Source: an uncultured Blautia sp.
GTDB taxonomy: Bacteria; Bacillota; Clostridia; Lachnospirales; Lachnospiraceae
Direction of reading: 5' to 3'
Assembly: GCA_946557785.1 (NCBI GenBank)
Contig: CAMNTH010000008.1
Coordinates: 52,085-116,084, forward strand
Length of the DNA: 64,000 bases
Position numbers and translations under genes: made by a program. Of this stretch, positions 8,340-64,000 are shown piece after piece. Numbering within the stretch: position 1 is the stretch's first letter; each line of letters starts with the position of its first letter. The notes under the pieces are model-generated. The model ran no database searches. It was given only the letters and a program-made list of their open reading frames with translations, and had not been told where the DNA came from.

Positions 8340-9839
8340 ATGAGCGGATTAGTCAAAATAAAGGAAACGCCTAAAGCCAGAATAGGAGTATACAGTGCGG
8401 GTCTTCATGCATATTGGGAACAATTTGAGGGATTGCTGGATTGTCTGATGGGATATAATCGTTTTATTGAAGAGCGGCTTTGGGAGTTTGGAGAAGTCTA
8501 TAATTTTGGTTTGGTGGATACAGAGGACAAAGCACGGGAGGCTGGAGAATATTTTAATAAACAGAATGTTGACATTGTTTTTTCCCATGCGGCAACATAC
8601 TATACAAGTGCCTGCGTACTTCCTGTGCATCAGATTAATAAGGCGCCTGTGGTCATCCTGAACCTTCAGCCAACACCGGAGATGTCCTACGAAACAACAG
8701 GTACAGACCGCTGGCTGGCACAGTGTGTAGGGTGCTCCATTCCAGAAATCTCCAATGCTTTTAACCGTGCAGGAATACCATTTCGGGCAGTAAACGGGCT
8801 TTTGGGACTTCATGAAACCCCGCTTTTCGCAAAAGCGGACGAGGTGACATATGAAAGACCGGAAGCGATTAAGGCATGGAAGGAAATTGAGGACTGGTGT
8901 AAGGCTGCCTGCGTAAAGCGTGTGCTTGGACACGCACGGTTTGGATTCCTTGGCGGATATTACAGCGGAATGCTGGATATGTACAGTGACTTTACCATGC
9001 TGCAGGCGCAGACGGGAATGGATATAGAGGTCCTTGAAATGAGCGACCTGGCGGCATATTTAAAAAACGTTACGGAAGAAGAAGTTCAGGAAAAATGTCT
9101 CCAGGTGGAAAACTTTTTTGAGATATCCGGGGATTCACCATCGGATCCTATTGCACGGAAACCTACAAAAGAACAGATGCATTGGGCGGCTAAGGTTGCT
9201 GCGGCACAGGAAAAAATGGTGAGGGACAGAAATTTAGACAGTGTTTCTTACTATTATCACGGAAGAGATGACTATTTTGAGGAAATACAAAGCGGTTTTA
9301 TCGTGGGATTTTCTCTTTTGAACGCCCAGGGAATTGCCTGTGCAGGAGAAGGGGATATCAAAACTGCCCTTGCTATGAAGATTTCAGATATCTGCGGTAC
9401 AGGCGGAAGCTTCTGTGAGATCGTGGCAGCAGATTTTAACCGCAATACAATGATATTAGGACATGATGGTCCATTTCATTTTGCCATTTCCAAAGGAAAA
9501 CCTATTCTTCGAGGAATGGGAGTTTATCATGGGAAACGGGGCAGCGGCGTATCTGTAGAGGCCAAGGTACGTCCGGGAGCAGTCACGACCCTGGGAGTAA
9601 CTCAGACGGGGGACGGAAGGCTGAAGCTTAATATCAGTGAGGGAGAAGCCATTGACGCTCCCATTTTGCTGAACGGAAATACCTCCACCCATATCCGCTT
9701 TGACCTGCCGCCGGCAGAATATATGGATCGGTGGTTTGCACAGGCTCCAACCCATCATTTGGCTCTTTCTGTGGGACATAATGCAGGCCTGTTTCAAAAG
9801 ATTGCGGAACTTATGAATATTCCTTATGCTATTTATTAA
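8340..9839 (+). CDS. L-fucose/L-arabinose isomerase-like sugar isomerase, substrate unknown
   Basis: ACAGEGDIKT, FCEI...D, GHDG and APTHH motifs of the FucI/AraA superfamily. Confidence 0.85.
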   Translation: MSGLVKIKETPKARIGVYSAGLHAYWEQFEGLLDCLMGYNRFIEERLWEFGEVYNFGLVDTEDKAREAGEYFNKQNVDIVFSHAATYYTSACVLPVHQINKAPVVILNLQPTPEMSYETTGTDRWLAQCVGCSIPEISNAFNRAGIPFRAVNGLLGLHETPLFAKADEVTYERPEAIKAWKEIEDWCKAACVKRVLGHARFGFLGGYYSGMLDMYSDFTMLQAQTGMDIEVLEMSDLAAYLKNVTEEEVQEKCLQVENFFEISGDSPSDPIARKPTKEQMHWAAKVAAAQEKMVRDRNLDSVSYYYHGRDDYFEEIQSGFIVGFSLLNAQGIACAGEGDIKTALAMKISDICGTGGSFCEIVAADFNRNTMILGHDGPFHFAISKGKPILRGMGVYHGKRGSGVSVEAKVRPGAVTTLGVTQTGDGRLKLNISEGEAIDAPILLNGNTSTHIRFDLPPAEYMDRWFAQAPTHHLALSVGHNAGLFQKIAELMNIPYAIY

Positions 9840-51357: not shown

Positions 51358-54300
51358 ATGTACCATTGTCATATTCAGTTTTACTTAACAGGCCATTCAT
51401 CTAATGTGTTTGGAATCATTAGAGAAATGTGTCCGCTTGAGCATTTTACCCATGAATTTTGGGAAAGCGACAGGCCCCGGCAGGAACTGGCGTCAGGAGC
51501 AGATGTGATTTTTGCCAATCTTCTGGATATGGATAGGAAGGATGCTTTGGAGGTACTGTCTTTAGAAAAGCGGGAGGAAGGAGAACTGATCCTCCTTGCA
51601 GACAGAAAGCAGATGGGACTTTTAACAGAGCACTTAGGAGGAGCGAAGGATATCTGGGTCATGCCTATGTCAGAAGAGGAAATACGGTTCCGTTTTTTGA
51701 GATGGCAGCAGATATACAAAATGGGTAAGGATCTTTGGGAAACACGGCACTTTTTTGAAAGCACTATTAACAGCGTACCAAATCTCATCTGGTATAAAGA
51801 CAAACACGGCATACATGAGAAAGTAAATGACAGTTTTTGTAAAACAGTCAATAAAACAAAAAAGCAGGTAGAAGGACGGGGACATGCCTATATTTGGGAT
51901 GTTGAGTTTGACGATCCGGTATGTATTGAATCGGAGCAGGAGGTAATGCGCAAAAAGGAAACCTGTGTATCCGAAGAGGTGATTATGACGGGAGACGGTA
52001 AAAGAATGCTGACCACTTATAAATCACCTCTTTATAACCTGGACGGAAGCGTTATGGGAACTGTTGGCGTTGCAATTGACGTAACACAGGAGCGTGCCTA
52101 TGAACAGGAGATTATCAAGAAGAACCGCACTTTGGAGACAATCTTTACCAGTCTGGACTGCGGCATTTTGTCTCATTCCTTAGATGGAACGAAAATACTC
52201 AGCATAAATAATGCAGCACTTAAGATCCTGGGGTATGAATCCCGGGAGGAATTAACGCAAAGCGGATTTTCCATGGTTGCCGCTTCTGTTGTGGATGAAG
52301 ACAAAGGAAAGCTGAGGGATTGCATCCGCAGGCTGAAAAATGTGGGGGACAGCGTGAGCCTTGAATACCGTGTGCAGCATAAAGATGGGGAAATCCTTCA
52401 TGTTATGGGAAATGTGAAGCTTCTGATGGAAAACGGGGAATTGTTTTATCACCGTTTCCTTTTGGACTGTACGGAGCAGAAGCTAAAAGAGAAAAAGAAT
52501 GAAAGACAGCAGATGGAACTGGTACAGGCATTAACGATTGATTACAATCTTGTGTGCTTTTTTGATCTTGATACCGGTATTGGAAAAACTATTCGAATTG
52601 ATGAGGATCAAGACCATATGCTTTCCGCTGTTTTTGGCGGAGAAATTTCATTGGAAAGAAGCCTGGATCTATATATAGACAAATTTGTTTATGAGGATGA
52701 TAAAGAAATGATGAGACAGGCAGCTTCCCCGAAGAAGCTGAAAAGGGAATTGGCAGAGAGAAAGATATATTATGCCAATTACCGTATCTGTAAGGACGGA
52801 GAGATGAGGTATTTCCAAATGAAAGCCGTCAGGGCAGGAATCTGGGAGAACAGTCCCTGCATTGTTCTGGGCTTCCGCAGCGTGGATGAGGAAACCAGGA
52901 AGGAAATGGAGCAGAGAAGCCTTTTAGAAGATGCACTTTTGCAGGCAAACAGGGCCAGTAAGGCAAAGAGCGTATTTCTCTCAAATATGTCCCATGATAT
53001 CCGTACGCCTATGAACGCCATTGTAGGCTTTACCACCTTGGCTATTTCACATATTGACAACAGGGAGGAGGTAGAAGAGTACCTTAAGAAGATTATGATG
53101 TCCGGAAACCATTTGCTGAGCCTTATTAATGACGTCTTGGATATGAGCCGGATTGAAAGCGGAAAGATGCATCTGGATGAAAAGCTGTGCAGTTTGCCGG
53201 AGATTCTTCACGAACTGCATAACATTGTCCGGGCAGATATTAATTCCAAACAGCTGGAATTATATATGGATACGGTGGATGTATTTGACGAGGATATTTA
53301 CTGTGATAAGCTGCGCTTAAACCAGGTACTTTTAAACTTATTGAGCAATGCGGTGAAATATACCCCTGCCGGTGGAACGGTAAGCATGCGGGTTTCAGAA
53401 AGGCCGGGCGTGAAGAAGGGTTATGCCAGCTATGAATTCTGCATTAAGGATACGGGGATCGGGATGAGCAGCGAGTTCGTATCCCATATTTTCGAACCTT
53501 TTGAACGAGAGAAAAATACGACCATCAGCGGTATACAGGGCACAGGCCTTGGCATGTCCATTACCAAAAATATCGTAGATATGATGAATGGTATCATTGA
53601 AGTAAAAAGTGAACTGGGAGAAGGCACGGAGGTGACGGTTTCCTTTGCATTCCGTCTGGATTCTGACGTTAAGGAGCCAATGGAAATACCGCAATTCAAA
53701 AATTCCAGGGCGCTTGTTGTGGATGATGATTTTAATACGTGTGACAGCGTATCTTATATGCTTACCCAGATGGGACTTCGGGCAGAGTGGACCCTGTCGG
53801 GAAAAGAGGCAGTGCTTCGGACTCGTCAGGCAGTTACGCGCAAGGATAATTACGAAGTATATGTGATTGACTGGCTTTTGCCTGATATGAATGGAATCGA
53901 GGTGATCAGGAGGATCCGCAAGGAGATTGGAGATGAAGCTCCAGTGATCCTGCTGACTGCATATGACTGGTCTGATATAAAGGATGAAGCAAGAGAAGCG
54001 GGCGTAACAGCCTTTTGCAGTAAGCCTCTGTTTTCTTCTGAATTAGGGAACTGCCTGCGATCGATTGTGAATGCTGGCGAAAGAAAAGAACGGTGCGTTG
54101 AAAAGGTACTGGACAAGCTTCGTTCAGGGCGTATCCTTCTGGTGGAGGACAATGAACTGAACCAGGAGATAGCCGTAGCGATTTTGGAGGATGCAGGCTT
54201 TTATACAGAGGTTGCAGAAAACGGAAGAACTGCTTTGGAAATGCTTGAGAGATCTGAACCAGGATATTATCGTCTGATTCTTATGGATATCCAGATGCCT

Positions 54301-54501
54301 GTGATGAATGGCTATGAAGCGACCAGGGAAATCCGTAAGCTGAAGAATAAGGAGCTGTCTTCCATTCCGGTCCTGGCAATGACGGCCAATGCTTTTGAAG
54401 AGGATAAACAAAAAGCTCTGGAATGCGGAATGAATGGACATATTGCAAAGCCTATTAATGTGGACATATTATTTGAGACATTAGATATGGTGTTATCGTA
54501 A
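51358..54501 (+). CDS. Hybrid sensor histidine kinase (PAS domains, HisKA-HATPase, two REC domains)
   Basis: FLSNMSHDIRTPMN, NLLSNAVKYT, DTGIG, GTGLG; receivers VIDWLLP and MDIQMP. Confidence 0.94.
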   Translation: MYHCHIQFYLTGHSSNVFGIIREMCPLEHFTHEFWESDRPRQELASGADVIFANLLDMDRKDALEVLSLEKREEGELILLADRKQMGLLTEHLGGAKDIWVMPMSEEEIRFRFLRWQQIYKMGKDLWETRHFFESTINSVPNLIWYKDKHGIHEKVNDSFCKTVNKTKKQVEGRGHAYIWDVEFDDPVCIESEQEVMRKKETCVSEEVIMTGDGKRMLTTYKSPLYNLDGSVMGTVGVAIDVTQERAYEQEIIKKNRTLETIFTSLDCGILSHSLDGTKILSINNAALKILGYESREELTQSGFSMVAASVVDEDKGKLRDCIRRLKNVGDSVSLEYRVQHKDGEILHVMGNVKLLMENGELFYHRFLLDCTEQKLKEKKNERQQMELVQALTIDYNLVCFFDLDTGIGKTIRIDEDQDHMLSAVFGGEISLERSLDLYIDKFVYEDDKEMMRQAASPKKLKRELAERKIYYANYRICKDGEMRYFQMKAVRAGIWENSPCIVLGFRSVDEETRKEMEQRSLLEDALLQANRASKAKSVFLSNMSHDIRTPMNAIVGFTTLAISHIDNREEVEEYLKKIMMSGNHLLSLINDVLDMSRIESGKMHLDEKLCSLPEILHELHNIVRADINSKQLELYMDTVDVFDEDIYCDKLRLNQVLLNLLSNAVKYTPAGGTVSMRVSERPGVKKGYASYEFCIKDTGIGMSSEFVSHIFEPFEREKNTTISGIQGTGLGMSITKNIVDMMNGIIEVKSELGEGTEVTVSFAFRLDSDVKEPMEIPQFKNSRALVVDDDFNTCDSVSYMLTQMGLRAEWTLSGKEAVLRTRQAVTRKDNYEVYVIDWLLPDMNGIEVIRRIRKEIGDEAPVILLTAYDWSDIKDEAREAGVTAFCSKPLFSSELGNCLRSIVNAGERKERCVEKVLDKLRSGRILLVEDNELNQEIAVAILEDAGFYTEVAENGRTALEMLERSEPGYYRLILMDIQMPVMNGYEATREIRKLKNKELSSIPVLAMTANAFEEDKQKALECGMNGHIAKPINVDILFETLDMVLS

Positions 54502-54536: not shown

Positions 54537-55275
54537 GTATGACGGCATGCCGCCAGTCTGATGAAAGGTGAAAGTGGATGATACACTTTGACCAAAATAG
54601 TATGGAGCAAGGGATATGGTAATTACTATGGTGCCATATCAAACTATGAATGTATTACGTTCAATGACACAGCTGTGAGGACAATACAGACATGAAACTT
54701 CAATGGAACCAGATAGACTGGACGAGAGCAGAGGAATCAGTTAATAGGTTACAGATCCGGATTGCAAAGGCAACATTGGAACAGAAATGGAGATTGGTCA
54801 AAAGGTTCCGGTATTTAATGACAAGGCGGACAGAATTTCGTTTGGCTTTCGTAAATATAGAAGTCTTGAAGATGCCAGAGAATGCGCATTTAGTGTACTT
54901 AGCAGAAAAGACTCGCCATAATGAATATTGGAAGGAGATATTAAAAGTTGCTTTAATAAAATCAGTCACTAGTGGATAATGGAAAATATTCCAACAGATA
55001 AAAGAATGCTAAAAGAGTTTATGAAATGTGGACATGTAGAAAAAGGAAACTTATTTCCTACATCAGAAGAGTCCAAGTAGCGTAGCTACTTGAAGACAGC
55101 TATGCTGTATAGATGATGGCGGAGGTTCCCAACCACCTAAGGTGCTGTAGTCAAAAGCTATGGTATTGAGCATTAGGGAAAAATTTCGGTAAATTTAACC
55201 CATCGGTAATGAAAGGAGACTTTCACGTACGGTTCCGTGAGAAGTTTGAGGTGAAAATCCTCTTACTTACTTGAC
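54537..55275 (+). mobile_element. Internally deleted group II intron remnant
   Basis: 5' end GTATGACGGCATG (GUGYG-like); RT fragments; 3' D5/D6 TGAAAGGAGACTTTCACGTACGGTTC...CTTACTTGAC. Confidence 0.85.
54692..55080 (+). pseudogene. Group II intron reverse transcriptase fragments
   Basis: QWNQIDW..AEESVNRLQIRIAKA (N-terminal), then in another frame FGFRKYRSLEDA...**ILEGDIKSCFNKISH*W...LFPTSEE; stops and deletions. Confidence 0.88.
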
Positions 55276-57096: not shown

Positions 57097-57474
57097 ATGA
57101 GCTATGTAACAGGAAAGACGATTAAAGAATTAAGAGAAAGAAGGAAGATTACCCAGAAGGAGCTTGGGGAAAAGATTGGCGTAAGTGATAAAACAGTGTC
57201 AAAATGGGAAACGGAAAAGGGGCTTCCTGATATTGGAATTATTGAGGATTTAGCCGGGGCGCTTGGCGTTTCCATTGCGGAACTGTTAGCAGGTGATCTG
57301 AGGGAGAATAGGAATCGGTCGGCGAATATGCGGAAAATGTGTTTTTATGTCTGTCCGGTCTGTGGGAATATCATTACGTCTGTAGGGCATGGCTTTTTTT
57401 CCTGCTGTGGGATTGAGCTGCCGGAGGCAGAAGAAGAAAAGGATATTGTAATAGGCATGGAATGTTTAAAATGA
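57097..57474 (+). CDS. XRE HTH protein with desulforedoxin-like Cys motif, possibly C-terminally truncated
   Basis: TQKELGEKIGVSDKTVSKWE; YVCPVCGN...FSCCG; ends shortly after. Confidence 0.75.
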   Translation: MSYVTGKTIKELRERRKITQKELGEKIGVSDKTVSKWETEKGLPDIGIIEDLAGALGVSIAELLAGDLRENRNRSANMRKMCFYVCPVCGNIITSVGHGFFSCCGIELPEAEEEKDIVIGMECLK

Positions 57475-57753: not shown

Positions 57754-57786
57754 AAGGTAGGTGAAAGAAAAACACCTACCTTTCTT
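57754..57786. terminator. Hairpin downstream of the recombinase operon
   Basis: AAGGTAGGTG/CACCTACCTT perfect 10-bp stem. Confidence 0.7.
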
Positions 57787-57838: not shown

Positions 57839-58729
57839 TTAAAACAATGCTATCTGTCCATCACTGGCTATGTCAGGAACTTTGGCTGACATATTTTCAT
57901 CAGATAATGGATTTTGTGGTTTTGGTCCTTTGTTCGAATACAATTTGCTCATCGGCAGCGGCTTCTGTGTCTTTTTGTTATAAGCCAGAAGCATTGCTTC
58001 CGCATATCCACGAGAACCGGCACTGCGTTCTCGTGCAGTTCTTGTAAGTTCTTTTAAGGATACTACCCCTAGTTTTTCAATGAAAACATTGTCCTTCATA
58101 GTGTCCCCAAAACAATGTATGAGACGGGCAACACCATTAAGCATGTTTGCACTGAATGATTTTGGACTTCCTTCCCATGCACCAATGATCAGGCGTAGTG
58201 TCCGGTCTAATATCTGAAAACTGTATTTGTCATGGATGGATTCCAGCGTAGCTACAGCACAGATATTTCCGGGAGCAGCTTTGTTTGCAATCTTCATATT
58301 GTAGGATTCTACCAGTGACCGTATAATCAGCTGCTTATCGTTCCCAGCTTCGATGTTTGCCATGAAGATCTCATATGGTGTCAATGACTTGGTATATTTT
58401 GTCTGGTTAGCAAAAATTTCCGCTTCTCTTTGATATTCCAGATCATCATAGATCATGCACCATACCGGCGTTTCACGGGAACCTGATACAAGAGCAACAG
58501 TTTCTATTGTATGCTGGCCGTCAAAAACATAGTTAATGCCATTGCGTCTGCTTACTTTCACTGCATTAATCTGGCAGACATCAAAATTAGTAGCTGTTGT
58601 ATTTACATGCTTATCAGACAATGTTCGTTGATAATTCTGATCGGATACAAGATTTTTGATTGGTATCAGTTCAAAATGGACAGGGGGTATAAAAGGTGCA
58701 AAGCATTGAAAGACTATTTCATTATTCAT
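57839..58729 (-). CDS. ParB-like protein (DUF6551-like)
   Basis: LVSDQNYQRTL...VKVSRR...YVFDGQHT; ends GQIALF. Confidence 0.8.
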   Translation of the reverse strand: MNNEIVFQCFAPFIPPVHFELIPIKNLVSDQNYQRTLSDKHVNTTATNFDVCQINAVKVSRRNGINYVFDGQHTIETVALVSGSRETPVWCMIYDDLEYQREAEIFANQTKYTKSLTPYEIFMANIEAGNDKQLIIRSLVESYNMKIANKAAPGNICAVATLESIHDKYSFQILDRTLRLIIGAWEGSPKSFSANMLNGVARLIHCFGDTMKDNVFIEKLGVVSLKELTRTARERSAGSRGYAEAMLLAYNKKTQKPLPMSKLYSNKGPKPQNPLSDENMSAKVPDIASDGQIALF

Positions 58730-59675
58730 GATATCGTTCCTCTATTCGTTTCCTGATTTTTTCGATACTCTCGGTAAGGTTGAATAATGTTTGCTCCAGT
58801 TTCCAAAGGGCAGAAGTAGATGCATTGCTAAAATCCGTTATCTCTATAGCTCGGTTAATGGAACTGATCCACATTGGTATTGTAAGAGTCAGGCTGGATA
58901 AGTCTGCATCCGGATCATATTTGGGCCTGAGTTTTATTGCCGGTGTAATCTTACGTTCTTCCGCAAGAAGTTTTGCTTTCTTTTTTTCCCGTTCCTGGGT
59001 ACGCATAAGGGATGGCTGCAGTAATCGGTTGTCACGATTATTTACAATATGATCACGGATCACCTGGATTTCTGGTGCAGACATTTTGGAAAGTCCTATT
59101 GTATCGTTCTGTGAAAGGTGGAAAACTGCACGAAGAATATCATCTGCAATTTCCGGACATTTCGCAGCAATCTTATCTATCGCTATAGAATACATTCCAT
59201 ATTTGGAAACTGTTCCTGGAGTAATCTTAACTTTATCTCCTAACAAATCAGCGGCAATGTTTTTGGTGCCAAAACCTTTCTGGTGCCATTTCATATCATC
59301 AGGAGTGTATTGATTTTGATGGCGGTATTTTTCTATCATAATTAATTTCATTGCTTCGTAGAATTTTCCAACACGATAACGAAGCTGTTCAATGGTACCC
59401 TGGTGGCTGGCAAGATGAATCTGACACATATGTGCAACGGCTTCCGGGCGAGAAGCGATATCGACTTCCTTTAGAGTAAAAGGGATTTTTCGTGCATGAT
59501 AGATTTCGTATTCAGAATATCCTGATAAAAGGATTTTTCGCCACACGAGTAAGGGTCTGGATCCATTTTTGATTAGGTCAGCTCCGAGGATGGCCTTTTC
59601 TTCTGAAGAGAGAAGCGTATCAAGCCTCTTGAATTCCGGATCCAGGATTAAATTGTAAATGCGTTGTTCACTCAT
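58722..59675 (-). CDS. Protein with degenerate ParB/Srx-like N-terminus and HTH-like middle
   Basis: LILDPEFKRL..LLSSEE..L...G.RPLLVW..ILLSGYSEYEI; NIAADLLG..KITPGTVSKY. Confidence 0.7.
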   Translation of the reverse strand: MSEQRIYNLILDPEFKRLDTLLSSEEKAILGADLIKNGSRPLLVWRKILLSGYSEYEIYHARKIPFTLKEVDIASRPEAVAHMCQIHLASHQGTIEQLRYRVGKFYEAMKLIMIEKYRHQNQYTPDDMKWHQKGFGTKNIAADLLGDKVKITPGTVSKYGMYSIAIDKIAAKCPEIADDILRAVFHLSQNDTIGLSKMSAPEIQVIRDHIVNNRDNRLLQPSLMRTQEREKKKAKLLAEERKITPAIKLRPKYDPDADLSSLTLTIPMWISSINRAIEITDFSNASTSALWKLEQTLFNLTESIEKIRKRIEERYHE

Positions 59676-60039
59676 TATTTAATTCCTCCTGAGCAGTGGT
59701 TGGTATTGCTTCGTTTAGATTAAAAAGTATCAGATTCTCTTTAGCTACATGAGTACCGTATATTTTGTACATCTGACGTTTCCACGATGGCTCAAATAGT
59801 TTGCAGAGTCTTGTTATCAGTAATTTACTGTAGAATTCGCAGCACTGTTTATCTCCAAAATGGATCCATCTAACTCTTTCACCTGTATTAGTCGGACATT
59901 TCTGAATAGCCAGCATTTTCTGTTCCGGATTGATCAGGAATTGGATATTATTTGGACTGTTCAGAAGGTAAAGAGTCTGTCGGTGGATACGCAGGCGGTG
60001 GATATTACAGTCAATAACTATGGATGGCTGTCTGTTCAT
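59668..60039 (-). CDS. Hypothetical protein, 123 aa; paralogue of the recombinase C-terminal domain
   Basis: Start re-placed at ATG 60039 after GAGGA; IQFLINPEQKMLAIQKC, YKIYG, LILFNLNEA. Confidence 0.75.
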   Translation of the reverse strand: MNRQPSIVIDCNIHRLRIHRQTLYLLNSPNNIQFLINPEQKMLAIQKCPTNTGERVRWIHFGDKQCCEFYSKLLITRLCKLFEPSWKRQMYKIYGTHVAKENLILFNLNEAIPTTAQEELNNE

Positions 60040-60700
60040 AGGTATTATCCTCGCTTTCTGATGAGCCTGATGCGGGTTTAGAAGAAGTTTTGATTGCATC
60101 TTTCTGCAGACCGAAGACTGCCTGACCATTGAATATACTGATCTGCACAGCAGATTTATGGTCAGGTACCGGCATACCAAAGTCATTTTTCCATTCTTCA
60201 AGGAATACTGGAGTACGGGAAATTTTTGTTTTTCCATCTTCTTTAATAGTGCGTTTATAGATTTCCGGAGTATTTAGATCGAAAACAAACAGATATTGAC
60301 CGTTTGCTTTTTTTAGTTTTCCTAGCAGTTTGTACTTGTAATCGATCTGCCAGTTCATAAGAGTAAATACTTTCGCAAAAAACATGCGGCAGGTGATTTG
60401 TTTTGGTGAACGATTGGCGGTAGCAGAACACCAGCGGAAAGAATCTTTTTCATCTTCCATGCAAGGTCTGACTGCCAGTTTCTTCTCATCCGGATTGACC
60501 ATGATCTGAACATAGTCATATTCAGGAAGCTTTTTTAAACATGCCTTGTTTACCTGAACTTTATAATTGTTAAAGGTAAGTGACGGCTCAAAGATGTGGG
60601 AAAAGAATTCGCCGCGAACTACCTGATAGCCTTCAAAGCTAAATTTGTCATCAATTTCTATATCATCCGCCAGAACTTGTCTGTTCATTTCAGCATTCAT
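60011..60700 (-). CDS. Hypothetical protein, 229 aa; paralogue of the recombinase C-terminal domain
   Basis: FEGYQVVRGEFF, VQIMVNPDEKKLAVRPC, YKYKLLG, WKNDFG. Confidence 0.85.
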   Translation of the reverse strand: MNAEMNRQVLADDIEIDDKFSFEGYQVVRGEFFSHIFEPSLTFNNYKVQVNKACLKKLPEYDYVQIMVNPDEKKLAVRPCMEDEKDSFRWCSATANRSPKQITCRMFFAKVFTLMNWQIDYKYKLLGKLKKANGQYLFVFDLNTPEIYKRTIKEDGKTKISRTPVFLEEWKNDFGMPVPDHKSAVQISIFNGQAVFGLQKDAIKTSSKPASGSSESEDNTYEQTAIHSY

Positions 60701-62567
60701 ATTGTGTATTCTCCTTTATTTCTAAAATAATCATGTCTATATGTTTCTTTAAATCACTTTTACTTGTAATATCCGGCAAAGGCTCAGGTTCATAGGTTGA
60801 TTTGATCTCTGTATTCCAGTCTTTTTCGGTAAGGTGGGCAAATTCAAATGCCTGTGCCTGATAATAAAACCCATTCCCGAAGCTGTGAATCCAATCTTTC
60901 GGATACGCAGATACACTTACTTTAGTTCCCAGAGGCTTTACATCATCCTCAAAGAATGGCTTTTCTGACGAATCATAATCCTCTGTTTTTTCCAGGATGG
61001 AATTGGGAATCAATGCTTCTGCATCATGTAGATTAAAGAGAATAAAGCTTTCAGTTCCATATTGCTTTCGTGTTCCGATTACACGGTATTTATAACTTAT
61101 ATTCCAACCAAATAATTCGAACAGATTAGGCAGAAATGCGGAGCCGGAAATCTGTCTTGGATAACGCTGGCCATTTGTAACCGTTGACCAGTGAAGCGCT
61201 GTTTTACTTTTGGATTCTGCAGGTCTGACAGCGAAACAAAATTTTTCCGGATGCACGAGAAATTCCACATGATTAGAATCAAGCTTTCTGACACATTCCG
61301 TGGTGAAAACTACAGTTTTAGATGAAAAAGTAATGCGGATCTGATTGGCGGTATCGAAAAATTCAGCTCTTGCCACTTCATATCCTCTCAGGTCAAATTC
61401 GCCTGATTCAACCGTTACGGACGGCTCCATTTCTTGATTAGACGTTTTATAAAGAGCTGAGTATGCTTTCTTATAATCACTTGCCTTAAAAGCAGCCCAT
61501 CGGGGGTGCACGGTAATAAATCCTTTCAGAATACCAGTAGTGATCACATGCAGTTTTGGAGTGGGATCTGCATTTCCATGCTTTGCACTGGCAATCAAAC
61601 GCTGAACAGCAATGAAATCTGAACGTGAAATGATTGCTTCATGATGTTCTTTTTTTCGATACTGATTGCGGTTCTGTTTGTTCTTTTTAGACTTATGGTC
61701 AAGATAGTTTGGAGTATATGTTTTTCTTGCAAGCACATCACCACAATGGCGTTCATTTTCCAGTTGCTGAAGTACTGTATTGGCTGACCAGGAAGTATTT
61801 CCAAGTTTTGTTTTTCTTTTTAAATCCGTCAAAATCTTTGCAATTTCCTGACAGGTATAGCCATACAGATACATGAAAAAGATCAGGCGGACGGTCTTAG
61901 CTTCTTCTTCATTGATGACTAATGTACCTTCTTCATTATGGTCGAAGCCAAGTAATGGAGGAGTCAGGAAAATACCGCGGCGAAAGCGCATTTCTATGGA
62001 TGCATTCATGATCTCACTTTTGTTATGACTTTCTTCCTGAGCTAGTGTAGAGATAAAGGATAGACTCATTTCGCTGTTACTATGTAAGGTGTAAATGTTT
62101 TCTGTTTCAAAAAACACTCCGATAGGAGGATTGAGAGCAGCAAGCTGGCGGACATAACCGATGCAGTCAAGGACATTTCTGGCAAAACGGGAAACGCTTT
62201 TGGTAACAATCAGGTCGATTTTTGCGGCATGACAATCTTCGATCATCCTTACAAAGGCATCTCTGTGTGACAGGGAAGTTCCAGATATTCCTTCATCTGC
62301 ATATATTTCGACAAGTCGCCATCCTGGATGCCTGCTTACCACATCCTGATAGTGGTTCTTTTGTAATTCATATGAAGAAGTCTGACGTGGATCATCAGTG
62401 GAAACTCTTGCATAGACAGCTACTCTTTTCTCGCTTTCATCATCATAAAAACTTGTCTGAGGAAGAGCTGGGATAACGTCAAGTTCATCTACATTGACAC
62501 CTGTGTATCTGCGGCGTATTTTCTCCTTTTGAGATAATCGGTTTTCTGCTTTTTTGTTGTTATTCAT
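60690..62567 (-). CDS. Large serine recombinase with an atypical C-terminal domain
   Basis: VAVYARVS56T, IYADEGISG, KSVSRFAR, AQEESHNKS, recombinase domain (LGFD, NE.HCGD, HEAII). Confidence 0.93.
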   Translation of the reverse strand: MNNNKKAENRLSQKEKIRRRYTGVNVDELDVIPALPQTSFYDDESEKRVAVYARVSTDDPRQTSSYELQKNHYQDVVSRHPGWRLVEIYADEGISGTSLSHRDAFVRMIEDCHAAKIDLIVTKSVSRFARNVLDCIGYVRQLAALNPPIGVFFETENIYTLHSNSEMSLSFISTLAQEESHNKSEIMNASIEMRFRRGIFLTPPLLGFDHNEEGTLVINEEEAKTVRLIFFMYLYGYTCQEIAKILTDLKRKTKLGNTSWSANTVLQQLENERHCGDVLARKTYTPNYLDHKSKKNKQNRNQYRKKEHHEAIISRSDFIAVQRLIASAKHGNADPTPKLHVITTGILKGFITVHPRWAAFKASDYKKAYSALYKTSNQEMEPSVTVESGEFDLRGYEVARAEFFDTANQIRITFSSKTVVFTTECVRKLDSNHVEFLVHPEKFCFAVRPAESKSKTALHWSTVTNGQRYPRQISGSAFLPNLFELFGWNISYKYRVIGTRKQYGTESFILFNLHDAEALIPNSILEKTEDYDSSEKPFFEDDVKPLGTKVSVSAYPKDWIHSFGNGFYYQAQAFEFAHLTEKDWNTEIKSTYEPEPLPDITSKSDLKKHIDMIILEIKENTQYEC

Positions 62568-62779
62568 AAAATTTGTTCCTTTGACTTATATTGGGATTTC
62601 ATTATAGCGTTGCTAAATACAGAATAAAATGGACTGGCGGTTAAGTTATTAACCACTGGTTATAGAAATGGCCAATTTATTTTGAGATTATTCTGTGTCA
62701 GACTATTTGATTTATTCGATGAGGCTGATAGCAAGAGTAAGGCTAGACTAAGTGGAATATTTTTCAGGAGGAATAAAGT

Positions 62780-63139
62780 ATGGTAGATTTCAAGTTGATT
62801 GGATTAAGAATTAAGGAAAAGCGTTTTGAAGAGCAGATTACACAGGCATATCTGGCGGAGCAGGCAGATCTTTCTCCGCAGTACCTGAGTCAGGTGGAAG
62901 CAGGAAAAAAGAGAATTAGTTTGGAGTCGTTAGTAGAAATTGCAAGGGCATTACATACGACTGTGGATGATTTGTTAACAGGAAATCAGTTTGATACAGA
63001 GGATCAGTATGTAAGAGAAATCAGTAAGCTGTTGGAAGACTGTTCAGTGACAGAGCGGAAAATCATGTTTGAACTGATGGAGACAGTAAAAAAAGTTATT
63101 CATGAAAATATAATTTATTTTGAAAAGACAAGAAAATAA
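62780..63139 (+). CDS. XRE-family regulator divergent from the recombinase operon
   Basis: IGLRIKEKR...TQAYLAEQADLSPQYLSQVEAG. Confidence 0.9.
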   Translation: MVDFKLIGLRIKEKRFEEQITQAYLAEQADLSPQYLSQVEAGKKRISLESLVEIARALHTTVDDLLTGNQFDTEDQYVREISKLLEDCSVTERKIMFELMETVKKVIHENIIYFEKTRK

Positions 63140-63456
63140 ATGAATTGACCGTGAAAATTCAAAGATATCGGATATTTGCCGCTATACCTACTGCAGCAAC
63201 ATGGTGATGTGGGACATGAATACAAAGATGCTTCAATATTTGGATGGAGGACTTTGGAGACAGTGAGGAAGAAACTGGAAAAGGTGAAGGGTGAAAAGCC
63301 TGTATCGCAGAAAATGTTCCGGACAATCTGATAGGGGATGGTAAGACGCTCTGCCTTGACGGGGCGTTTTCTTAATTTTTCGTAAGTATCATTATAGAAA
63401 CTTGTATTTATCAACCACACAGCTTATAATGGAGACTGTGTTAGTGGAGGTGGATC

Positions 63457-63654
63457 ATGACAACATGGGATATGATAAGAGAGTTGTATGAGAAATAGAA
63501 TATTAGTCTTGCGGAGCTTTGCAGACGAATCGGACAGACCCCGCAAAACTTCAATAAGAGGCTGAAGTGAGGTACAGTTTCTTTTGAGAAAATGGTGGAA
63601 ATAGCAGAGGTACTGGATGTTGGATATGAGCAAGTGTTTGTGAAAAGTGTATAG
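63457..63654 (+). pseudogene. Cro/XRE HTH pseudogene with two in-frame stops
   Basis: RBS GGAGG; MTTWDMIRELYEK*NISLAELCRRIGQTPQNFNKRLK*GTVSFEKMVEIAEVLDVGYEQVF. Confidence 0.75.
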
Positions 63655-63770
63655 ATTACATACATAATCCAAGTCTTGCGCCGACTGGTTCAACTGAAAG
63701 AAATACGATTGCACGCCCCGTTTGTTACTTGTGCAAGTGCACAGATGATAATAAAAAAGGAGGTAGAAGA

Positions 63771-64000
63771 ATGATAATTAGTGCAAGTCGAAGGACGGAT
63801 ATTCCAACATACTATTCTGAATGGTTGTTTAATAGACTTAAAGAAGGGGTTGTTCTGGTAAGAAATCCTATGAATATTCATCAGATTGGTAGAATAAATT
63901 TATCTCCTGATGTTGTTGATGGAATCGTGTTTTGGACTAAAAATCCCGTATCAATGCTGGACCGCCTTTCTGAACTGGATAGATATAATTACTATTTTCA
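63771..64000 (+). CDS. DUF1848-family protein (5' part; runs off the window)
   Basis: RBS AGGAGG; MIISASRRTDIPTYYSEWLFNRL...VFWTKNP; absent from the ORF track because it has no stop in the window. Confidence 0.88.
   Translation, partial: MIISASRRTDIPTYYSEWLFNRLKEGVVLVRNPMNIHQIGRINLSPDVVDGIVFWTKNPVSMLDRLSELDRYNYYF

Follow-up and report, generated by a model that had tools for sequence, protein, structure and literature searches.

The window, a stretch of 64,000 nucleotides from an uncultured Blautia sp., carries a serine recombinase gene that overlaps the first of four further genes on the same strand, and the locus raises the question of what such a set of proteins does. Large serine integrases and transposases (phiC31, Bxb1 and A118 Int; TnpX/TndX; CcrA/CcrB) have their catalytic N-terminal and recombinase domains in common with this recombinase, here called A. 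They work, however, alone or with one directionality factor, whereas A has four co-transcribed partners (B to E) and lacks the zinc beta-ribbon and coiled coil that in these enzymes define how sites are recognised and directionality is controlled. The original prediction was that the five genes encode a multi-subunit recombination or mobility machine for which no functional description was known. On the latter point a literature search agrees: it found only DUF6551 in general and a short-form relative of A, orf2, with no role given for orf2.

Results

Gene layout and flanking signals

The five overlapping minus-strand genes, the divergent XRE gene upstream of A and the hairpin downstream of E were all recovered as originally described. 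The features are:

57756-57780, no strand assigned: hairpin GGTAGGTG-N9-CACCTACC, 59-83 nt past the E stop, with a T-run on the plus strand; read from the sequence
57839-58729, minus: E, 296 aa, DUF6551 (PF20188, E 1.2e-35), ParB-CTPase fold, DGQHT motif
58722-59675, minus: D, 317 aa, ParB-like N-domain, HTH and helical C-terminal region (AF2/Foldseek)
59668-60237, minus: open reading frame that contains C
59668-60039, minus: C, 123 aa, shortened copy of the B domain (hhalign)
60011-60700, minus: B, 229 aa, free-standing copy of the A C-terminal domain (hhalign)
60690-62567, minus: A, serine recombinase of 625 aa, PF00239 and PF07508, without zinc ribbon or coiled coil
62639-62654, no strand assigned: palindrome GGTTAA-GTTA-TTAACC, about 85 nt upstream of the A start; read from the sequence
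62780-63139, plus: XRE-family regulator, 119 aa, HTH_3 E 1.8e-12, belonging to the conserved unit

The overlaps at A/B, B/C, C/D and D/E are 11, 29, 8 and 8 nt, with the start of C placed at an internal ATG (M67) of its open reading frame. This start is taken because the five genes called on public contigs of identical sequence have the same sizes (625/229/123/317/296 aa) and because homologues of C are about 120-135 aa in size. In 74 of 80 loci an XRE gene lies upstream of A at a distance of no more than 1.5 kb, the best hit being divergent in 50 and co-directional in 24; many related loci have one XRE gene of each orientation. The palindrome upstream of A is a presumed XRE operator at the operon promoter, and other lineages possess palindromes at the equivalent position (about -85) but of different sequence. 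Since the T-run of the hairpin is on the plus strand, the hairpin looks more like the terminator of a convergent plus-strand gene, or a bidirectional terminator. Its absence from the consensus hairpin scan is due to its loop, which exceeds the limit of 8 set for the scan.

A recombinase without a zinc ribbon and two copies of its C-terminal domain

The catalytic resolvase domain of A spans residues 49-198 (PF00239, E 2e-25) and the recombinase domain residues 220-326 (PF07508, E 1.6e-22). R54, S56, R127 and R130 fall within invariant columns of an alignment of 29 homologues, and the serine-recombinase catalytic domain of A is intact. Its best family-level matches are CcrB/CcrC and the PHROG family 'integrase', with NCBIfam scores far under the family cut-offs (90 bits vs 900). 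The recombinase is indeed atypical, as had been claimed. In Pfam searches Zn_ribbon_recom (PF13408) has no match in A or in its short-form relatives, unlike the neighbouring tandem phage integrases of related loci, which match it at E 1e-9 to 1e-13. The C-terminal ~200 aa of A (residues ~386-593) are homologous to B (hhalign E 1.6e-33), and a B-like domain takes the place of the zinc-ribbon region.

B and C had been taken for paralogous partner proteins, and hhalign supports this (B vs C, E 9.5e-14) while extending the paralogy of both to the C-terminal domain of A itself (A vs C, E 1.5e-12; A C-terminus vs C, about 1e-13). B is beta-rich. Its AF2 model is of moderate confidence (pLDDT 66) and has no Foldseek match in PDB or BFVD. 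None of its homologues, at least 1102 in number, has a Pfam domain, and some are named 'integrase' by NCBI; at 50% identity the B-domain family forms at least 2143 clusters. DNA binding by the B domain is assumed in what follows.

Two ParB-fold proteins

Both ParB-like assignments hold, that of D by Foldseek and that of E by Pfam. The AF2 model of D (pLDDT 83) matches pNOB8 ParB-N (5k5d), Spo0J (1vz0) and Noc (7nfu) with a Foldseek probability of 1.00, one D homologue is named 'ParB N-terminal domain-containing protein' by NCBI, and the helical C-terminal region contains a conserved motif, MPxYDPDA...LTIPSW. The family consensus of D is DGHxRY, whereas D of the window reads SGYSEY, as do in similar form about a quarter of the homologues. 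Nucleotide-dependent clamping by the window D is doubtful because the DGHxRY loop is missing. E has a weak match to the DGQHR/DndB-type TIGR04172 and is the most conserved gene of the five, with a median identity across loci of 63% (58% for A). Phage DUF6551 fusions, described as ParB-CTPase-fold proteins, bind ATP or CTP in vitro (PMC12704722).

Among proteins of the ParB-CTPase fold (ParB/Spo0J, Noc, KorB and BisD of ICEclc; DndB; the DUF6551 fusions), D thus resembles the ParB N-domain and HTH in structure, and E is a DUF6551 protein. Unlike ParB systems, the module has no ParA partner or known parS, and no ParA-type gene is present in it or conserved beside it in related loci. The literature search found no report of a ParB-fold protein and a serine recombinase in one operon.

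Conservation and boundaries of the module

Synteny was counted in the 63 related loci with at least 3.4 kb of sequence after A. The gene order B-C-D-E is kept in 50 of them and B-D-E in 10, while 3 deviate; C is undetected in 10 of the 63, the Ruminococcus lineage among them. This synteny of B-C-D-E with A is far more than expected by chance, and the condition that was to refute the original prediction, a lack of syntenic conservation of the four downstream genes with the recombinase, does not hold, as their synteny with it is strong. The gene junctions overlap or abut in most loci. No further conserved neighbour gene family emerged around the module when the related loci were compared. DNA similarity of module copies in different contexts stops at the XRE stop and at the E stop; between the window and its closest relative, DNA homology reaches 63177. 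The XRE gene and A to E, six genes at 57,839-63,139 of the window, are therefore shown to be one conserved functional module.

The module is widely conserved; temperate phages of the gut carry it, as do other integrating elements. It occurs in Lachnospiraceae, Ruminococcus, Syntrophomonadaceae, Selenomonadales, Erysipelotrichaceae and other taxa. Aligned module copies have no conserved non-coding ends flanking them. No recombination site, substrate or product of the module was identified in the related loci and public assemblies, and the public assemblies contain no excision or inversion joints.

Phage and island context

The window copy of the module lies by itself in a low-GC island, and on the visible side no phage genes can be recognised. 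The original remark that no relaxase, phage or replication gene is seen is correct for the window but does not extend to the relatives, which include Ca. Heliusvirales prophages and a relaxase-bearing island. Ca. Heliusvirales phages are described as a lineage that is widespread in the human gut. In these prophages the module lies near the attachment site, beside a tandem pair of zinc-ribbon serine integrases; phage records with the module near the attachment site are PV036424, PV036434, PV036453 and PV036458. A truncated comEC is located beside the module in PV036424 and in loci L052, L054 and L081. In L060, L065 and L024 a truncated comM follows E by 0.4-2.5 kb, with phage replication genes on the opposite side. 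The relaxase/restriction island that carries the module, L094, has McrBC, a WYL protein and type I R-M in its flanks. About three quarters of the loci have no second recombinase in the visible flanks, and many long-form loci, the window and L094 among them, have no other one within the 10 kb visible on each side. In temperate phages of the Ca. Heliusvirales type and in other integrating elements of Bacillota, the module is shown to be part of the accessory region close to the attachment site.

A two-gene short form in streptococcal phages

A short form of the module consists of two genes, orf2 and the next small gene in phi1207.3/Tn1207.1-type phages, which encode a 370-aa recombinase and a C-like protein. 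Short-form recombinases are 370-399 aa long, have no B domain, and are always followed by a protein of 139-145 aa homologous to that domain (hhalign against the B/C domain, E 4e-11 and about 5e-7). The orf2 product of phi1207.3, Tn1207.1 and phi-m46.1-type elements and of the S. suis phi-Ssu phages is ~40% identical to A over A residues 13-359. It has the same Resolvase and Recombinase architecture without a zinc ribbon, followed by the small B/C-domain protein. Like the Heliusvirales module, the short form adjoins the attachment site of a phage with a tandem zinc-ribbon integrase pair and the same replication gene type. It differs from the long form in having two genes only, with the domain unfused, and in the absence of B, the ParB-fold D and E, and a dedicated XRE pair. 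These comparisons indicate that the window module is an expanded form of the phi1207.3/Tn1207.1-type two-gene 'third recombinase' module, a membership given by homology and by position in the relatives, as the phage context is not visible in the window.

The short form bears on which enzyme integrates the element. Between comEC- and rum-integrating S. suis phages the short recombinase is 98.6% identical and the C-like protein 99.3%, whereas the tandem integrases are only 36-47% identical; in the phi1207.3 paper, integration is assigned to orf56/57. An integration role of A-type recombinases is disfavoured because the comEC or rum target tracks the tandem integrases and not the nearly invariant short recombinase. 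The mobility machine of the original prediction, in the sense of integration, loses ground by this and by the presence of separate canonical tandem integrases. On the streptococcal short form, the module is probably not the primary integrase of the element. The left phage arm (P' arm) of the attachment site is identical in comEC and rum phages despite their different tandem integrases, so it could be that the A-type module does read this site. In L060, L065 and L069 the attachment arm that adjoins the module has the outer motif TTGTATC, as in the streptococcal attP arms, and the two attP arms of the comEC phage are inverted repeats of each other, which is what a single canonical integrase would lead one to expect.

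Discussion

The reading that we favour, tentatively, is that the locus encodes an XRE-controlled, multi-protein auxiliary recombination module that is not the primary integrase and whose function is so far undescribed. A would be its sole catalytic subunit, with the ~200-aa beta-rich domain in place of the zinc-ribbon and coiled-coil part through which large serine integrases recognise their sites and achieve synapsis. Several copies of this domain may be needed: A would contribute it in cis and B and C in trans, whereas the short form would have it in trans only. If so, catalytic and non-catalytic site-binding subunits would come together in a hetero-oligomeric active complex, an arrangement that recalls the accessory subunits found in resolvase synaptosomes. 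D and E, as nucleotide-dependent DNA-binding ParB-fold proteins, would be loaded onto DNA in the vicinity and would shape or license this complex, and the XRE protein or proteins would repress the operon via the palindromic operator. Primary integration would be the job of the tandem zinc-ribbon serine integrase pair, and the module would carry out an auxiliary reaction on DNA of the element itself, close to the attachment site or a cargo slot; of the possible reactions, we favour one that controls excision or resolves the circular form.

Serine recombinases that need extra non-catalytic DNA-bound subunits for a regulated synapse are familiar from resolvase and invertase synaptosomes, such as sites II-III of Tn3/gamma-delta res, Sin with HU, and Hin/Gin with Fis. 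The accessory subunits in those cases are the same full-length enzyme or host nucleoid proteins, whereas in the module they would be dedicated binding-domain paralogues and ParB-fold proteins. No res-like site was found at the module. A bolder proposal, which we consider unlikely, is that of a new class of serine-recombinase machine, in which the site-binding domain is detached and provided by paralogues in cis and in trans and two ParB-fold NTPases license the reaction. Its use would be other than integration, for instance capturing or swapping variable cargo that starts at the module ends, or recombining and disabling rival elements at the shared attachment site.

Alternatively, the module could be cargo that protects the lysogen or element through superinfection exclusion, anti-phage defence or defence against rival elements, with the recombinase and ParB-fold proteins acting on invading DNA and the whole being exchanged like defence cassettes. 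The position in the variable accessory region between integrases and early genes, the sharp boundaries, the XRE regulator of its own, and the occurrence in phages, a relaxase island and a chromosomal island all fit such a role. The XRE-side neighbours are enriched in R-M and defence genes (C5 and N6 methylases, EcoRII, Vsr, GmrSD, Fic, WCX), to which the genes flanking L094 can be added, yet this enrichment is expected for any gene of a prophage accessory region. Serine recombinases have recently served as markers of defence loci in the literature, but none of the known defence systems has one as effector, and none of the five proteins matched a PADLOC model (E <= 0.01). A short form of one recombinase and one small protein is also hard to imagine as a defence system, and overall this explanation seems improbable.

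It is quite unlikely that A with B to E constitutes the integration and excision module of elements with no other recombinase (small integrative or mobilisable elements and the island of the window) and a second, alternative system in the Heliusvirales phages. A is a catalytically intact relative of the large serine integrases, and wherever a junction with a truncated host gene is visible, the module always lies within about 0.4-3 kb of it. The identical P' arm in phages with different tandem integrases, and the relaxase of L094 with no other integrase within 10 kb, would also suit an integrase. The lack of a second recombinase in the visible flanks of most loci points the same way, but the integrase of a 50-kb prophage can fall beyond 10-kb flanks. 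Moreover, the target follows the tandem pair, the shared TTGTATC motif and inverted arms fit one canonical integrase, and the module is without conserved flanking end sequences.

That the 5.3-kb unit is an autonomous small mobile element, a serine-recombinase 'transposon' inserting into prophages and islands, is very improbable: near-identical units (78-95% nt) do lie between flanks that are unrelated to each other, and their similarity breaks off at the XRE and E stops (for example in L060/L065, L025/L028/L036, L029/L048, L077/L080 and the window/L094), but terminal repeats and conserved non-coding ends were not found, at the E end the similarity is lost within or at the coding sequence, none of the related loci retrieved has a second copy, no empty/occupied pair was found, and among the contigs listed all 8 of the 8 with the flanking gene of this strain have the cassette in the same place.

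The module is common, with a B-domain family of this size, and the widespread Ca. Heliusvirales carry it. A zinc ribbon and coiled coil exchanged for a domain that is also made separately would be a way of recognising sites and exerting control that is new among serine recombinases, and a functional link of a ParB-fold NTPase to site-specific recombination is undescribed in the literature searched. The short form sits in the streptococcal phages and the Tn1207.1 element that spread mef(A)/msr(D) macrolide resistance. Knowing how the module works could show how these prophages control excision or exchange cargo.

Results

The genes A to E (A, serine recombinase; B and C, paralogous partners; D and E, ParB-like proteins) and the divergent XRE gene form a cassette at window positions 57839-63139, with the following features.

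Genes and local features of the cassette, in window coordinates
60690-62567, minus strand: A, 625 aa, from the ORF listing
60011-60700, minus strand: B, 229 aa, from the ORF listing
59668-60039, minus strand: C, 123 aa, from an internal ATG of ORF 59668-60237
58722-59675, minus strand: D, 317 aa, from the ORF listing
57839-58729, minus strand: E, 296 aa, from the ORF listing
62780-63139, divergent from A-E: XRE-family gene
57756-57780: hairpin with a T-run on the plus strand, 59-83 nt past the E stop
62639-62654: palindrome GGTTAA-N4-TTAACC, ~85 nt upstream of A

The overlaps of 11, 29, 8 and 8 nt between A-E, as originally read, were reproduced by the ORF listing. The divergent XRE gene and the hairpin beyond the E stop are present as originally read, and the same five products were called independently on public contigs with identical sequence. 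Palindromes of differing sequence are found at the equivalent position in other lineages, and such lineage specificity is what putative operators for co-evolving XRE repressors would be expected to look like. Since the G+C content drops from ~0.44-0.47 to ~0.39 from roughly 54 kb to the window end, the cassette lies within a low-GC island starting after a hybrid histidine kinase gene (51358-54501). Within the window, no genes other than an XRE/zinc-ribbon gene, EamA, AraC and a piece of an intron are seen on the E side of the cassette; the XRE side continues over the window edge into DUF1848, DUF3990 and HTH genes, and the public contigs end ~3 kb beyond position 64,000. A 95-aa ORF with an RVT_N domain only, at the island's inner edge (54692-54979; 9066-9353 in the fetched locus L001), resembles part of a reverse transcriptase from a group II intron or retroelement. 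A second XRE-type gene (57097-57474, plus strand), convergent with E and outside the conserved unit, encodes a product with a C-terminal CxxC...CC zinc-ribbon-like tail and weak desulfoferrodoxin-N and rubredoxin-like matches. Adjoining the cassette's XRE gene, a small HTH-like frame with two in-frame stops (63458-63655, plus strand; MTTWDMIRELYEK*NISLAELCRRIGQTPQNFNKRLK*GTVSFEKMVEIAEVLDVGYEQVFVKSV) is probably a decayed regulator gene.

A carries the Resolvase and Recombinase Pfam domains and, by Pfam, no zinc-ribbon domain, which upholds its description as an atypical serine recombinase. R54, S56, R127 and R130 are among its invariant columns, and A is predicted from its sequence to be one catalytically intact serine recombinase. 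In profile-profile comparison, residues 386-593 of A and 15-205 of B prove homologous (E 1.6e-33) and C is a shorter member of the B-domain family (E about 1e-13), so that B and C are paralogous as claimed. By the same kind of comparison, the repeated module of the original prediction is also the C-terminal domain of the recombinase itself. The B/C domain occurs in cis and in trans. No Pfam model exists for the B family, for which one search gave at least 1102 proteins and another 2143 clusters at 50% identity. The AlphaFold model of B is beta-rich (pLDDT 66), and no relatives were found in the PDB by sequence or Foldseek or in the BFVD viral structure library.

The model of D (pLDDT 83) matched ParB N-domain-plus-HTH structures at probability 1.00, with no PDB match at the sequence level. 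E is DUF6551. A 2025 survey describes DUF6551 as a ParB-CTPase-fold fusion whose phage members bound ATP or CTP (PMC12704722). Both proteins are therefore ParB-like as proposed, D by structure match and E by its DUF6551 domain, and the module includes two ParB-fold proteins together with a dedicated XRE switch. The D family consensus has a DGHxRY loop, degenerate in the window copy to SGYSEY (residues 50-57); loss of this ParB-type loop is common to a sub-lineage of related loci (L003, L005, L011, L016, L050 and L075).

A scan of one genome per species gave 165 relatives of A, and the 80 loci kept came from Lachnospiraceae, Ruminococcus, Syntrophomonadaceae, Selenomonadales, Erysipelotrichaceae, Finegoldia and others. 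Co-occurrence and order of B-E with the recombinase, the check named in the original prediction, were counted in the 63 loci where 3.4 kb or more follows A and proved conserved: B-C-D-E is found in 50, B-D-E with C undetected in 10, and a deviating arrangement in three. Rare departures from this order are L037, with A-B-C and neither D nor E despite 10 kb of downstream sequence, and L061, in which A, E and a split B occur without C and D. An XRE gene lies upstream of A in 74 of the 80 loci. Many loci carry an XRE pair made up of a divergent and a co-directional gene, and an invertible XRE segment was rejected on these grounds. Identity to the window proteins, taken as a median, is highest for E (63%), followed by A (58%), B (56%), C (35%) and D (32%).

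Copies 78-95% identical in DNA occupy unrelated flanks, with similarity breaking off at the stop codons of XRE and E, and the closest relative found (77% nucleotide identity) aligns only to window 57897-63177. The unit is therefore the XRE gene plus A-E, ~5.3 kb. Clustering of all flanking ORFs revealed no further conserved neighbour gene. The match between the 1047-aa gene of the window and the gene after E in L020 is a shared-domain effect, because both are hybrid histidine kinases.

When E and A were searched against annotated phages, the whole cassette was found in 16 Ca. Heliusvirales records, from phages of Coprococcus, Blautia, Agathobacter, Dorea, Faecalimonas, Syntrophomonadaceae and Oscillospirales. 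A tandem pair of zinc-ribbon serine integrases and an endolysin lie on one side of the cassette, and a repressor and early genes on the other. In the phage record PV036424 and in L052, L054 and L081, the XRE side is 2-3 kb away from a 5′-truncated comEC. In L060, L065 and L024, E is followed after 0.4-2.5 kb by a truncated comM, and phage replication genes are found on the XRE side. The junction is readable to the base in L060, L065 and L069. In temperate phages, the module is positioned near the attachment site. The prophages of L060 (17211-18299) and L065 (15109-16173) interrupt comM in what appears to be the stretch encoding the conserved LVAATN segment, and a 95% identical element end is joined to a different gene in L069. 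PV036424, which has no terminal repeat, was rejected as a circular genome; the fragment at its right end, for which Pfam gave no match, is unlike the membrane-embedded comEC N-terminus.

Two or three zinc-ribbon recombinases are convergent with E in ~15 of 68 genomic loci. The flanking-ORF census gave restriction-modification/defence genes, methylases, some tyrosine integrases and relaxases on the XRE side, and zinc-ribbon recombinases, endolysins and comM on the E side. The closest relative of the window cassette has a relaxase gene to one side and McrBC/type I R-M genes to the other; together with the phage contexts, this indicates that the module is common to several kinds of integrating element. 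At L025 5730-5810, 28 nt past the E stop and convergent with E, stands the 3′-terminal stretch of a zinc-ribbon serine integrase gene (~16 codons; YYSKDDVRFTFKNGVVIPL*), with unrelated DNA beyond. It may be what a deletion left behind, or may mark an att crossover within the integrase 3′ end. Such remnants were rejected as a general sign of att crossover beside E, L025 being the only case.

A has further matches, at ~40% identity over its residues 3-359, among recombinases of ~370-400 aa; these belong to other Heliusvirales and to the phi1207.3, phi-m46.1 and S. suis group of streptococcal phages. Each phage has three serine recombinases. The short-form recombinases have neither a zinc ribbon nor a B-like domain, and after each comes a 139-145 aa protein with homology to the B/C domain. 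The conserved core is therefore a recombinase plus a B/C-domain protein, fused or separate. The annotated S. suis records extend into the host flanks. Their order at the left is comEC′, CpXC protein, short recombinase (A-short), C-like protein and cargo, and at the right it is lysis genes, tandem integrases, a small gene and ′comEC. The cargo slot after the short module differs between two S. suis phages (L099 4836-9856 versus L098 3792-7215): one has a tagatose PTS operon there, the other mef(A)/msr(D), and the exchange starts 38 nt past the C-like gene stop.

Discussion

Taken as a whole, the module is tentatively read as a system of auxiliary recombination. The B/C domain would replace the zinc ribbon as the module for site binding and synapsis, B and C would be non-catalytic subunits of the recombinase complex, and D and E may serve as nucleotide-dependent accessory DNA binders. 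The auxiliary reaction could be, for instance, excision control, resolution of a circular form, or rearrangement of the cargo slot, which begins within ~40 nt of the last gene of the module.

It is unlikely that the module is a defence or exclusion system carried as cargo. The PADLOC defence models gave no match for any of A-E. A recent paper treats small serine recombinases as defence-locus markers, but does not cover the A family.

The original prediction had also proposed a recombination or mobility machine. The part concerning mobility is weakened by the short form in S. suis. Between the comEC- and rum-integrating phages, A-short is 98.6% and the C-like protein 99.3% identical against 36-47% for the tandem integrases, which means that the integration target goes with the tandem pair. 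In the phi1207.3 paper, likewise, integration and excision are assigned to orf56/57, and orf2, the short recombinase, is given no role. The two attP arms of the comEC phage form an imperfect inverted repeat with a TTGTATC motif, and this outer motif is also found at the comM-type junction beside the long cassette. Taken together, these points speak against the A-type module as the prophage integrase. A role as primary integrase for elements without another one is quite improbable. Cutting the other way, the left phage arm (GA|AGTGTGAGTTCTGAAATTGATACAAT) is identical in the rum and comEC phages of S. suis (L098 1289-1340, L099 2333-2385) despite their differing integrases; a right attP arm was not found in the rum phage. 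As a general rule, TTGTATC downstream of E was rejected (8 loci versus 4 in the opposite-strand control), and it lies there at a confirmed junction only in L060, L065 and L069.

That the module is an autonomous 5.3-kb element is very hard to credit, even with its copies in unrelated flanks: the unit has no terminal repeats or att-like ends above chance, no empty site was found in the same strain, where all contigs listed with the identical flanking XRE2 gene hold the cassette. Assembled public contigs contain no excision, circle or inversion joints at the module.

The literature searched (the DUF6551/ParB-fold survey, Heliusvirales taxonomy and the phi1207.3 sequence paper) holds no functional description of this gene set, in agreement with the original prediction, and the taxonomy papers do not discuss the cassette. 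The module is a serine-recombinase system of new domain architecture with unprecedented partners, widespread and functionally undescribed.
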